DNA of 64,000 nt. It comes from a virus (taxonomy: Duplodnaviria; Heunggongvirae; Uroviricota; Caudoviricetes). The notes under the pieces are model-generated. The model had not been told where the DNA came from. It saw only the letters and a list, made by a program, of their open reading frames with translations, and made no database searches. The first letter of the stretch is position 1. Each line of letters opens with the position of its first letter. The DNA is taken from the IMG/VR virus record IMGVR_UViG_3300009093_000040; one strand, written 5' to 3'. This document shows, one piece after another, positions 3,742 to 6,612 of the stretch. A program made the translations under genes and the position numbers.

Positions 3742-4122
3742 TTATTTTTTTCTTGATACTTCTATATGTGATATTGCTAATAGTTCAGTGTAACTTAAAT
3801 GTGGATTAAATAAAAGTTTTCCATCTACTTTAAAACCTTCCATCACCTCGTGCTCAACGGTTAATTTAAATGCAAGAAATAAAGTTTTGATAACTTCATC
3901 TTCAGTCATGTGCTCAGACAAATAAAACTTACGTCCGTGCCAGTTTTCTAATTTCTTTGATTTGTTGCATTTAGCTTTGTAAATTATTTGTAAGAACACT
4001 CTACCTTTTGTTTTGTAAACGTTATCACGTTCCACGCGTATCTCAAATTTTTGTTCAAATAAACCGCAACTTACTCTTTTGCAAATTGCTTTAGCATTTT
4101 CAAGTATTAAGTCTTTTTTCAT
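3742..4122 (-). CDS. Conserved hypothetical phage protein
   Basis: WHGRKFYLSEHMTEDEVIKT...EHEVMEGFK segment recalls a widespread phage family; overlaps the RT stop. Confidence 0.65.
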   Translation of the reverse strand: MKKDLILENAKAICKRVSCGLFEQKFEIRVERDNVYKTKGRVFLQIIYKAKCNKSKKLENWHGRKFYLSEHMTEDEVIKTLFLAFKLTVEHEVMEGFKVDGKLLFNPHLSYTELLAISHIEVSRKK

Positions 4123-5071
4123 TTTGAAGTAGTTTTTTCATTAAGTTTTTACCATTACAGTGTACAACCCATCCTTTATAAGCAGCAACCGAGGATGTTC
4201 TGTAATTTCTTTTCAACATTTTTGCAAAACGTTTTTTGATTCGTTTTCTAAGTAAAATATGAGTGTGGTAGAATTTGTAACCTACAAAATCAATTCCTCT
4301 TGCTTTAACTGGAAATATTTGCCAATTTTTCTTTATCTCTAGTTTTAAATTTTCTCTCAAATAAGCTGATATTTCAAAAAATAACTCTCTAAGGTGTTCT
4401 TTACTATGAGATAAAATTACTATATCATCAGCATATCTAAAATAATGTTTTACTTTTTTATTTTCTTTAATCCGGTGATCAAAATATGCAAGATAAAAAT
4501 TAGCAAAATATTGTGAAAGATAATTACCTATGGGAACACCGGGTGCAGAATCTATTATTTCGTCTAAAAGATTTAGTAAATCTTTATCTTTAATTTTTCG
4601 ACGTAATAAAGTTTTCAAAATCTCATGGTCGATATTAGGATAAAATTTTCTTATATCTAATTTTAAACAGTATTGAGTGCCTTCTACATCTAATAATGAT
4701 TTTCTAACTGCACGTAAAGCAGCATGAATTCCTTTGTTTTTTATACAACTATAAGTGTCGCTTGTAAATGTTGAAACAAATACAGGTTCCAAAAAATTCA
4801 TGATTGCATGATGAAGTATTCTATCTGGAAAATAAGGAAGGCGAAATATTTCACGTTCCTTTGGATCATAAATTTTAAAAACACTATAAGGAGATGTTTT
4901 ATAAGTTTTATTTACCAACATTTCATTCAGCTTTAAAATATTTTCATCACGCATTTTATCATGCTTAATTACTCCTGCTTGAAATTGCTTACCTTTTCTA
5001 GCTTTTTTATCAGCTAACAATAAGTTTTCAATAGTGCAAATATTTTGAAATATATCTTTTATTCGTTTCAT
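4100..5071 (-). CDS. DGR reverse transcriptase
   Basis: LKLDIRKFYPNIDH, GVPIGNYLSQ (DGR-type GxxxSQ) and YFRYADD catalytic motif; about 323 aa from ATG 5071 (track start 5089 is TTG). Confidence 0.95.
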   Translation of the reverse strand: MKRIKDIFQNICTIENLLLADKKARKGKQFQAGVIKHDKMRDENILKLNEMLVNKTYKTSPYSVFKIYDPKEREIFRLPYFPDRILHHAIMNFLEPVFVSTFTSDTYSCIKNKGIHAALRAVRKSLLDVEGTQYCLKLDIRKFYPNIDHEILKTLLRRKIKDKDLLNLLDEIIDSAPGVPIGNYLSQYFANFYLAYFDHRIKENKKVKHYFRYADDIVILSHSKEHLRELFFEISAYLRENLKLEIKKNWQIFPVKARGIDFVGYKFYHTHILLRKRIKKRFAKMLKRNYRTSSVAAYKGWVVHCNGKNLMKKLLQNEKRLNT

Positions 5072-5140
5072 TTTTTCCTTTGCTTTCAAAGTCGTTTTCG
5101 TCCTTAGCTTACTAACGCCTTCTTTTTAGCATTTATTTTT

Positions 5141-5154
5141 TTGCCTAGAGGCAA
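5141..5154 (-). other. Hairpin in DGR spacer RNA between TR and RT
   Basis: TTGCC-TCTA-GGCAA followed by an A-run on the minus strand. Confidence 0.55.
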
Positions 5155-5185
5155 GGTCTATGTTACTTGTTTTAAAAGCAAATTA

Positions 5186-5246
5186 GGGAGCTGACATAAG
5201 AATTAGTATTCCAATTGTTGTAGTTCGTATAGGAAAAGCTAAATCC
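5186..5246 (-). repeat. DGR template repeat (TR)
   Basis: GGATTTAGCTTTTCCTATACGAACTACAACAATTGGAATACTAATTCTTATGTCAGCTCCC, rich in AAC/AAT, 18 adenines. Confidence 0.95.
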
Positions 5247-5303
5247 TGTGTGACTTAGCATTTTCTTACAACAGTCAGCCGCATAACATACAACCCTTTT
5301 AAT

Positions 5304-5696
5304 TTATTTACCTTCAAAATATTCTTTGTATAGCTTTAGGAAATGTGTTCCTGCATATTTGGCTAATTCTGAAGATTTATATGTGAGGAGGGAGCCGACA
5401 TAAGAAAAAGTACGCCAATAGTAGGAGTACGTACAGGAAAAGCCAAAGCCCGGTTTGTCCATCTCGAATATAGGTTCATATTTATATTGACTTGTATCTT
5501 TCCAGTTAGGTTTCCAACCTTGATTTAAAGCTTCTGCTATCACCATTAACTTATAGTGTGCTACAATTGATTTCTGACATTTTCTAGGTAATCCTATTAC
5601 GGTAGGTAATATTTTGGGATCACGTTTTAATAATTTACATGCATCCTGAAATGTTTTTACGCATTCCATAACTGGTTTTTGTTCTGTTTTTTTCAT
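5304..5696 (-). CDS. DGR target protein 1 (130 aa)
   Basis: Contains VR1; paralog of 5707-6162 (VKTF.DAC, ALN.GWKP, YKYEP, ELAKYAGT.FL). Confidence 0.9.
   Translation of the reverse strand: MKKTEQKPVMECVKTFQDACKLLKRDPKILPTVIGLPRKCQKSIVAHYKLMVIAEALNQGWKPNWKDTSQYKYEPIFEMDKPGFGFSCTYSYYWRTFSYVGSLLTYKSSELAKYAGTHFLKLYKEYFEGK
5390..5450 (-). repeat. DGR variable repeat VR1
   Basis: 61-nt alignment to TR with 12 mismatches, all opposite TR adenines. Confidence 0.95.
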
Positions 5697-5706
5697 GTTT
5701 GTTGGT

Positions 5707-6162
5707 TTAAGGATTATGGTGTTCTTTATATTCTTCTAAAAATTGAGTTCCGGCATATTTAGCAAGTTCGGCTGATTTTAGGACGAGGAGGGAGCCGACA
5801 GAAGAATCAGTATGCCAATAGTAGTAGTACGCATAGGAAAAGCCATCCCTAGTCATTTTGAAGCATGGTTCATATTTATACTCATTGTTATTATTGTAAT
5901 CAGGTTTCCACCCTTCATTAAGTGCTCTTACTATAATTTTGAGTTTCTTATACGCAATTTCATCTTTTGTGTCTAATGTATTGTTTGTAATCTGTGTAGG
6001 ATTTATACCTAACTCTCGACATGCATCACTAAATGTTTTTACTCTGTCGGTTACTTTTTGTGGAGCTTCCACAATGTTTTTTAAAACGAGTAGTCTTTCT
6101 TCAAAAACGAGTAGTCTTTCTTCAATCGTTTTAATTTCCTTTTTTGCTGCTTCTTTATCCAT
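5707..6162 (-). CDS. DGR target protein 2 (151 aa)
   Basis: Contains VR2; extra N-terminal coiled-coil-like segment. Confidence 0.9.
   Translation of the reverse strand: MDKEAAKKEIKTIEERLLVFEERLLVLKNIVEAPQKVTDRVKTFSDACRELGINPTQITNNTLDTKDEIAYKKLKIIVRALNEGWKPDYNNNNEYKYEPCFKMTRDGFSYAYYYYWHTDSSVGSLLVLKSAELAKYAGTQFLEEYKEHHNP
5790..5845 (-). repeat. DGR variable repeat VR2
   Basis: 56-nt alignment to TR with 9 mismatches, all opposite TR adenines. Confidence 0.95.
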
Positions 6163-6177: not shown

Positions 6178-6612
6178 TTATGTTAAACGTAATTCACTTA
6201 ATCCTAGTTTAATTGCTTCTGCTGGGTGATCAGTTACCCAGCTGTGGCAGTTATGACATCCAGCCATGAAGGTGGTATCATCTAAATAATATTTTCCTCT
6301 CCCTTTTTTATGGTGCACTTCAGTTGCTGTATTGGTACAATCTTTCAAATTCATTTGACAAAAAGGATGATTCTTTAAAAATTGTTTCCTCAAAATGGAA
6401 TACAACACATCTTCCTTTTCTCTTTTTGAAGATCGAGGGCGTATAGGTTTTTGCCTATTGTTTGTTGGTTTACCGTTATTCGTATCGTTTTGGCAACTCT
6501 TACTTTTATAACAGCTTTGGCAATACCTTTTACGCTCCTCGCCTTCAATTACATTTTTCCAGATTGGTTTATCTTTCTGGCAACCGTCACACTTTTTTAA
6601 TTTAATTTTCAT
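6178..6612 (-). CDS. Zn-finger/HNH nuclease-like protein
   Basis: N-terminal CxxC...CxxC; C-terminal ATEVHHKKGRG...CHNCH HNH motif. Confidence 0.7.
   Translation of the reverse strand: MKIKLKKCDGCQKDKPIWKNVIEGEERKRYCQSCYKSKSCQNDTNNGKPTNNRQKPIRPRSSKREKEDVLYSILRKQFLKNHPFCQMNLKDCTNTATEVHHKKGRGKYYLDDTTFMAGCHNCHSWVTDHPAEAIKLGLSELRLT

Follow-up and report, generated by a model that had tools for sequence, protein, structure and literature searches.

We describe here a diversity-generating retroelement (DGR) on the minus strand of the IMG/VR virus record IMGVR_UViG_3300009093_000040, from which a stretch of 64,000 nt (hereafter the window) of a phage genome of ~132 kb (131,910 nt) was analyzed. The mismatches between its template repeat (TR) and two variable repeats (VR1 and VR2) show adenine-specific homing into two genes, which encode small paralogous proteins upstream of the reverse transcriptase (RT) gene. 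Together with a comparison with a closely related cassette, this leaves us in little doubt that the DGR is genuine and has recently been active. Judged from their context, we lean towards the two targets being soluble, non-virion cytoplasmic binders that present a variable hairpin-loop surface.

Template, variable repeats and adenine-specific homing

The cassette is read on the minus strand in the order (5' to 3') target 2, target 1, TR, RT-17 RNA motif and DGR reverse transcriptase, and the gap of ~215 nt between target 1 and the RT gene contains the TR and the RT-17 motif only. The features are as follows, with ORF for open reading frame:

5707..6162, minus strand: target 2, the RT-distal paralog, 151 amino acids (ORF and translation; phrog_11581, E 9e-24)
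5785..5844, minus strand: VR2, at residues about G107-L126 of target 2; it includes GGCTCCCTCCTC, the GC-rich 3' end that both VRs share
5304..5696, minus strand: target 1, the RT-proximal paralog, 130 amino acids (ORF and translation; phrog_11581, E 7.7e-25)
5385..5450, minus strand: VR1, at residues G83-L104 of target 1; its GC-rich 3' end is that of VR2
5181..5246, minus strand: TR, non-coding (repeat search; alignment to both VRs)
5071..5158, minus strand: Rfam RT-17 (RF03020) RNA, between TR and RT (covariance-model match)
4100..5089, minus strand: DGR reverse transcriptase, 329 amino acids from TTG 5089 or 323 amino acids from ATG 5071 (RVT_1, phrog_1423, IGNYLSQYFANFYL, YADD)

A repeat search identified a 62-nt unit in three copies, at 5185-5246, 5389-5450 and 5789-5850. 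The copy that adjoins the RT gene, within the gap, is the template. Compared with this template, VR1 differs at 12 of 62 positions, and all 12 are template adenines (hypergeometric P = 8.6e-9). For VR2, true homology extends over 56 positions, and the 9 that differ are again exclusively template adenines (9/9); when VR2 is read in the 62-nt register, three further mismatches at positions other than adenine appear at its 5' edge, beyond the VR2 homology. A first-pass annotation, made from the letters of the window, had called a DGR on the basis of 12 (VR1) and 9/56 (VR2) mismatches, always at TR adenines. These counts are reproduced here, and the RT family and motifs, the RT-17 RNA and the restriction of TR/VR mismatches to adenines bear out that the element is a genuine DGR. 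The same annotation had noticed no VR-like copy in the fiber genes. A window-wide scan left the 17 adenines of the 56-nt core free to vary and tolerated at most six changes among the 39 other positions: within these 64 kb of the ~132-kb genome, it returned three copies only, those of TR, VR1 and VR2. A template/VR pattern with N at the adenine positions gave 0 matches in collections of metagenome contigs and viral contigs.

In the reading frame of the targets, the TR corresponds to GFSFSYTNYNNWNTNSYVSSLI; five of its codons are AAY and three are TAY. Adenine substitution in this sequence can generate no stop codon, and the computed number of protein variants is ~1.2e10 per VR. At their 3' ends both VRs carry the GC-rich sequence GGCTCCCTCCTC and the TR carries AGCTCCCTAATT, which by sequence looks like a pair of initiation of mutagenic homing (IMH and IMH*) elements. 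Downstream of either VR, no hairpin was better than in shuffled sequence (z -0.1 and -0.5). Both the VR and the associated cis elements are situated within coding sequence.

At two codons where the template has AGC (Ser), GGC (Gly) is present in each VR of the window (5440-5442, 5392-5394, 5840-5842 and 5792-5794) and in each VR of the related contig L085 discussed below. At these columns Gly is at least 90% conserved in each ortholog alignment of the target family (A3, A4). The conserved Gly columns point away from random change and suggest either that mutagenesis is followed by strong selection or that the differences are fixed ones at the boundaries of the repeat.

Recent activity of the cassette

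A close relative of the cassette, L085, is a 4.2-kb soil metagenome contig from another study with flanks that are 90-100% identical to the window. Identity drops to 72-74% exactly across both VRs, while the TR is 100% identical between the two. VR1 differs at 14 sites, all of them (14/14) template adenines. The flanks of VR2 are 90-96% identical and VR2 itself is strongly different; in both VRs, the divergence between the window and L085 occurs at template-adenine sites only. The source Logan contig has no break at the VRs. Because the TR is identical in L085 and yet VR1 differs at template adenines only, the DGR most probably is, or recently was, active. The first-pass annotation had proposed to look for variation at VR adenine positions among relatives, and VR1 of L085 supplies it. 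In L085, VR2 (2740-2812, corresponding to 5785-5854 of the window) has three more bases than its own TR, equal to one inserted codon, which is unusual for template-copied repeats.

A similar bias is found over greater distances. Among 80 related viral (IMG/VR) loci, 59 have the same layout of two to three tandem small targets, TR and RT, and 1,658 of their 1,689 TR/VR mismatches fall on template adenines, although the rule used to extend the repeats favors adenines outside the 50-nt core, so that the true excess is somewhat smaller than this figure. In most of these 59 loci the last target lies 206-264 nt upstream of the RT gene; in five the gap is wider, reaching at most 535 nt.

Reverse transcriptase, RT-17 RNA and accessory proteins

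The RT ORF (4100-5089) matches RVT_1 with an E of 2.8e-20 and phrog_1423, annotated as "reverse transcriptase", with an E of 5e-124; at the DNA level it is ~69% identical to RT genes of crAss-like phages. The protein is full length with the motifs IGNYLSQYF and YADD intact in translation, and is 59-70% identical to the RTs of the 59 related cassettes. A start at ATG 5071 is more likely than one at TTG 5089, because the match to the RT-17 RNA ends exactly at 5071; a public gene call (L094) also has an ATG start and gives an RT of 323 amino acids. The RT-17 match (RF03020; 5071-5158, minus strand) reaches 43.1 bits (E 2.6e-6), above the Rfam gathering score of 40.4. The motif was found between TR and RT in 8 of the 10 related cassette loci tested, and the crAss locus L001 in the same scan gave no match. 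RT-17 is likely the spacer part of the DGR RNA.

No Avd or HRDC accessory protein was found at the cassette, and the neighboring ORFs have no Pfam match. Absence of Avd is the rule in lineage 3 of Wu et al. (2018; PMC5758913), so that possession of an accessory protein is no defining feature there. In 52 of the 59 related cassettes, an ORF of ~98 amino acids (phrog_19665, no Pfam match) overlaps the RT stop codon (for example L005:7239-7541 and L010:5608-5904). Its AlphaFold2 (AF2) model is beta-rich and confident (predicted local distance difference test, pLDDT, 92), with weak PDB matches (E 0.03 or worse) that are mostly OB-folds, making this protein a candidate nucleic-acid-binding accessory factor of the Avd-less lineage. 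The ORF is absent from the window, where the sole match, of 14 bits and inside a tRNA region, is spurious.

The target proteins

The targets match phrog_11581 only (E about 1e-24), a family with no assigned function, and have no Pfam family. One search retrieved 238 relatives of similar length, and an exhaustive search that accepted matches of E up to 1e-3 retrieved 2,549 clusters at 50% identity. In both proteins the variable stretch is rich in Tyr, Trp and Ser, and the midpoint of the VR lies at 0.72 and 0.77 of the protein length. The lengths of 130 and 151 amino acids given by the first-pass annotation are as stated there, as is the Tyr/Trp/Ser-rich character of a VR near the C-terminus; the VR is followed by 26 residues in the 130-residue protein and by 25 in the 151-residue protein, rather than by the 27-28 it had counted. 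Target 2 has in addition an N-terminal helical extension that is coiled-coil-like by eye. Signal peptides had been reported absent, and indeed no hydrophobic or signal segment is present in either target; in a wider survey, a hydrophobic (membrane- or signal-like) segment of 19 residues was found in 0 of 118 family members.

When 30 members are aligned, the N-terminal part is seen to be a conserved helical core. It is followed by a hypervariable stretch of ~18 residues, located at the VR position throughout the family, and by a C-terminal segment that is again conserved; the sequence of the latter is VGSRLCFKS.ELA.YAG.QF for most members, with VGSLL in the window. In the AF2 model of target 1 (pLDDT 82; predicted template modelling score, pTM, 0.78), helices at residues 9-23 and 38-57 are followed by a hairpin (72-80/83-92), a low-confidence loop (94-101) and C-terminal helices (109-128). 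VR1 (G83-L104) corresponds to the second hairpin strand and the loop. The core of ~120 residues is predicted to be a helical scaffold with a beta-hairpin; rewriting affects the second strand of the hairpin and the loop after it, and a conserved helix forms the C-terminal part.

Structure prediction had been recommended to find a C-type lectin or other fold; the model obtained matched no solved fold. Foldseek found no PDB match with E below 2 for the target model, VIA-align against 48,161 chains reached a best Z of 3.4 with no lectin among the rows, and searches of AFDB clusters, BFVD and Atlas returned only uncharacterized, mostly phage proteins, several of them from crAss-like phages. A profile search against PDB sequences gave noise only, in the N-terminal helices, and no Pfam lectin family was found in the 30 members at E up to 1. 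The VR is not at the C-terminal end of the domain, unlike in the C-type lectin scaffold, since 25-26 conserved residues with a predicted helix come after it. Alignment with hhalign to the tail target of cr55_1 covered only 21 columns, at the 3' end of the VR, with a probability of 13%. The scaffold may be a reduced lectin or something else. A lead to SUKH/SMI1-KNR4 came from one automatic AFDB name; neither the Pfam search with the 30 members nor the PDB matches that were listed gave it any backing.

In the ~150 clusters with the best scores, out of 2,549, there is no fusion to a fiber, collar, immunoglobulin (Ig) or other domain. Of the longer forms returned, the four with more than 265 amino acids, and most representatives of 245-353 amino acids, are tandem duplications, and the others have no Pfam domain. 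A 269-residue member with RVT_1 was rejected as a domain fusion, as it looks like a read-through call.

From their sequence relationships, the two paralogs are old positional orthologs and not recent duplicates. The best match of the proximal copy in other loci is again a proximal copy in 50 of 53 cases, and that of the distal copy is distal in 47 of 53. Outside the VR, the two copies of one locus share 44% identity (median), compared with 77% between a proximal copy and its best match in another locus. Natural two-domain fusions of ~300 amino acids exist as well. Positional orthology and natural fusions together suggest that the two paralogs work together. A complex prediction for the pair gave an ipSAE of 0.39, against 0.00 for the best control; this mark is reached by 58 of 80 solved complexes and by 2 of 110 mismatched pairs, and passes at or below 0.60 are more often wrong than right, so that the prediction lends the pairing weak support.

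Genomic context and mobility

Every ORF of at least 150 amino acids at 0.4-27 kb of the window is encoded on the minus strand; from 28.7 kb onward, ORFs of this size are on the plus strand. The plus arm encodes terminase, portal and major head protein, at 41.8-50 kb. The targets lie ~22 kb from the nearest plus-strand ORF and ~35 kb from the terminase, portal and capsid genes, in line with the first-pass description of a small-gene region far from the fiber genes: the block is a minus-strand, non-structural arm. The source is a rhizosphere metagenome and the large terminase subunit (TerL) is ~25% identical to terminases of Crassvirales and of Flavobacterium or Cellulophaga phages; by these data the host is a large soil phage distantly related to crAss-like phages.

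With the exception of an HNH gene in three loci, none of the neighboring genes of the window is shared with the 80 related loci. Because the neighbors are not shared across related loci, we take the targets, TR, RT-17 and RT to move as a unit between unrelated phages. The related cassettes adjoin genes for a CI-like repressor, a Mu-type transposase, an ATPase, an exonuclease, an SbcC-like protein, anti-repressors, methyltransferases and DnaB/DnaC, and judged by such neighbors they always lie within early, regulatory or replication modules.

The remaining 21 of the 80 related viral loci (e.g. L012, L018, L021, L036, L038 and L057) have one to two family members and no RT within 6-8 kb. An orphan member is also present in Barnesiella propionica (L002, probably a prophage), in a block of small genes with no RT within 6 kb. 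Such RT-less members may have become fixed, or a DGR at another place in the genome may diversify them at a distance, as is seen for the phage BT-TP2 described below.

Relation to known DGRs

The first-pass annotation had contrasted the arrangement with characterized phage DGRs, most of which diversify tail receptor-binding proteins; the arrangement is not novel, since this cassette type is already catalogued, as t120/t121 by Wu et al. (2018; NAR 46:11) and as PC_00007 by Roux et al. (2021; Nat Commun 12:3076). On sequence and layout, the cassette belongs to lineage 3 of Wu et al. and clade 1 of Roux et al. DGRs of lineage 3 have, like the window, the order target(s)-TR-RT and no avd. The targets of t120 and t121 are small (124-156 amino acids; 131 in t121), with two in tandem in t120, the RTs are visibly similar, and the target sequences fit the family consensus (KY.PWF ... 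GFS ... VGSRL.F ... EIAKY.G), as judged by eye against alignment A3. Wu et al. (2018) assigned the VRs of t120 and t121 to class CLec3, a label derived from VR alignments, and the small proteins are uncharacterized there; comparison of our AF2 model, which covers the complete small protein, with solved structures yielded no C-type lectin.

In Roux et al. (2021), PC_00007 is classed as "Phage_other" (non-structural/unknown), with 1.6% of members predicted to be structural. It is viral, with Bacteroidota (FCB) hosts, RT operational taxonomic unit (OTU) REF_DGR_[t122] and DGR clade 1, and 208 catalogued DGR targets belong to one RT group. As in the window, the VR of PC_00007 lies at 0.72-0.77 of the protein, and primary and secondary targets are directly beside the RT; the biomes are soil, freshwater and gut. 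The TR and VR listed by Roux et al. for RT MLSBCLC_1005213014 are found verbatim in the related locus L028, whose targets are homologous to those of the window (47%, tblastn), with the assignment of L028 to the cluster seen via the RT OTU only. The paper only catalogues the cluster, whereas the window places a copy in a ~132-kb soil phage. New here are this host, the old positional orthologs, a predicted fold without solved match, and the missing OB-like ORF.

The DGRs of crAss-like phages (crAssphage LMMB, cr55_1 and others) resemble the cassette in their RT DNA (64-70% identical), the absence of avd and the order target-TR-RT. Their target, however, is a tail or tail-collar fiber protein of 570 amino acids in the structural module with the VR at the extreme C-terminus, whereas the window has two small targets in a non-structural arm. 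The cr55_1 locus gave no RT-17 match. The DGR of BPP-1 (Mtd, Avd, bRT) shares adenine-specific mutagenic retrohoming, stop-proof AAY-rich template codons and a GC-rich 3' element common to VR and TR. In contrast to the window, which has no Avd, an internal VR and no significant downstream hairpin, it needs Avd and diversifies a trimeric tail-fiber tip protein of C-type lectin fold, in which a C-terminal VR is followed by an intergenic hairpin. The second target of Quimbyvirus (Benler et al., 2021; Microbiome 9:78) is comparable in that it lies away from the structural module and was read as non-structural and conflict-related. It differs in being remote from the RT and having a recognizable C-type lectin domain, and the first target of that DGR is structural; in the window both targets are small, adjacent to the RT and without a detectable lectin domain.

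A member of the target family also occurs in a cultured temperate phage, Bacteroides phage BT-TP2 (PQ571279.1; Gut Microbes 2025, PMC12694917), beside cro/CI-type regulators. The gene is unannotated and spans the redundant ends of the record (L095 about 4930-5297 joined to L096 1 to about 330). Between its VR and the single template of the phage (record about 40647), 10 sites differ, all of them template adenines. The same template also serves gp44 (~2,260 amino acids), with 11 differing sites, all adenines. Unlike in the window, the small ORF of BT-TP2 is remote from the RT, and the RT is longer (431 amino acids) and followed by a DUF4376 protein. The paper (PMC12694917) describes only the target of ~2000 amino acids, gp44 being called potentially tail-related there. 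The presence of a family member in a cultured phage offers a route to a bench test of function.

Proposed mechanism and role of the targets

Following the BPP-1 paradigm, we infer that the TR and the RT-17 spacer RNA would be transcribed, that the RT would copy the template into cDNA while misreading adenines, and that the cDNA would replace the homologous 56-62 nt in both genes upstream, with the GC-rich 3' end common to the repeats as a guide. The products would be hypervariable binders, possibly as a heterodimer, of a fast-changing macromolecule of the host or of a rival phage, with a possible role in counter-defense, host takeover or exclusion.

The tested paradigm of phage DGRs is the switching of tropism through tail fibers. 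For the present targets we favor, on balance, a non-structural and soluble character, because of their location in a minus-strand block of small genes, the modules occupied in relatives, the absence of hydrophobic segments and of fusions, and the small structural fraction (1.6%) reported by Roux et al. (2021). That such proteins act specifically in counter-defense or host takeover is a tentative proposal. Rather more doubtful is a version in which the pair forms a cytoplasmic heterodimer of non-C-type-lectin fold, an early antibody-like repertoire that neutralizes host defense proteins or rival elements; if true, DGRs would gain a third scaffold, and intracellular action of a DGR on behalf of a virus would be shown for the first time. 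Several points weigh against our preferred interpretation. Small proteins can be minor virion components. In BT-TP2 and in some entries of Roux et al., one template also serves a large, probably tail-related protein, and through such a shared template the small protein could work with the virion. The 3' motif of the VR (VGSRLCF in relatives) resembles the CLec3 VRs of tail proteins. Finally, activity of this exact copy is read from one pairwise comparison (L085), and the copy is without an accessory protein and without the ~98-residue ORF of its relatives.

The same observations can be turned into the alternative that the targets are virion-associated, as small receptor-binding or adhesion subunits, perhaps heterodimeric, that dock on tail or capsid and are diversified as Mtd is. 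Most characterized phage DGR targets are tail proteins, and the same RT group and kind of template serve both tail-type targets (PC_00002) and the small family; Roux et al. (2021) moreover caution that unannotated clusters may be uncharacterized structural proteins. The double use of the BT-TP2 template and the CLec3-like 3' motif fit here as well, and the N-terminal extension of target 2 could be an attachment arm. Nevertheless, we regard virion association as unlikely: the genes are consistently in early, regulatory or replication modules, in the window on the strand opposite to the structural genes, signal or anchor segments and fiber, collar or Ig fusions were not found in the sets described above, few family members are predicted to be structural, and orphan copies lie in small-gene regions without structural neighbors.

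Another alternative places the targets on the side of defense, as sensors or excluders of rival mobile elements, with a diversified intracellular receptor that blocks superinfecting phages or satellites. In temperate relatives the cassette lies near the CI/Cro switch, anti-repressors and methyltransferases, where exclusion or moron genes often sit; bacterial conflict systems include putative sensors that are diversified by DGRs (PMC10907252), and Benler et al. (2021) place the non-structural DGR target of Quimbyvirus in a defense-related island. We nonetheless give this alternative a low probability, as no effector domain (nuclease, NTPase, TIR, protease etc.) is fused to the pair or conserved beside it, and no lysogeny gene was present among the window genes scanned, which makes prophage-style exclusion less likely in this large phage. 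It is very improbable that the cassette is a decaying relic in which the repeats record past homing and the copy is inactive for want of an accessory protein. The lack of Avd and of a detectable ~98-residue ORF would be expected in such a relic, but lineage 3 DGRs overall are without Avd (PMC5758913), the motifs of the full-length RT and the RT-17 motif are preserved, and both target ORFs are open. Moreover, the TR is identical in L085, and both VRs have diverged only at template-adenine sites in a background that is 90-100% identical.

To our knowledge, DGRs are the only natural systems of targeted protein hypermutation outside vertebrate immunity. Dedicated mobile cassettes diversify a very large family of small, soluble proteins from the non-structural modules of phages, an indication that phages employ hypermutation for a second purpose, so far unexplored. 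The function of such targets was left as a question by Roux et al. (2021).

Flanking genes

Two genes border the cassette:

3742..4122, minus strand: ORF of 126 amino acids, phrog_1540, overlapping the RT stop by 23 nt, a backbone gene outside the DGR
6178-6612, minus strand: HNH endonuclease ORF, directly upstream of target 2

The ORF at 3742-4122 was considered as an accessory factor and rejected, as neither an RT gene nor a member of the target family lies within 4 kb of its 8 homologs in viral contigs. It has no similarity to the 98-residue post-RT ORF of the relatives or to the ORF after the RT of cr55_1. In the search that gave the RVT_1 match, a weak Phage_pRha match (E 0.0076, below the cut-off) was discarded. 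In three related loci (L044, L045 and L052) homologs of the HNH gene are found 0.2-2 kb from the cassette; its position beside the cassette may be a coincidence or may be linked to cassette mobility.

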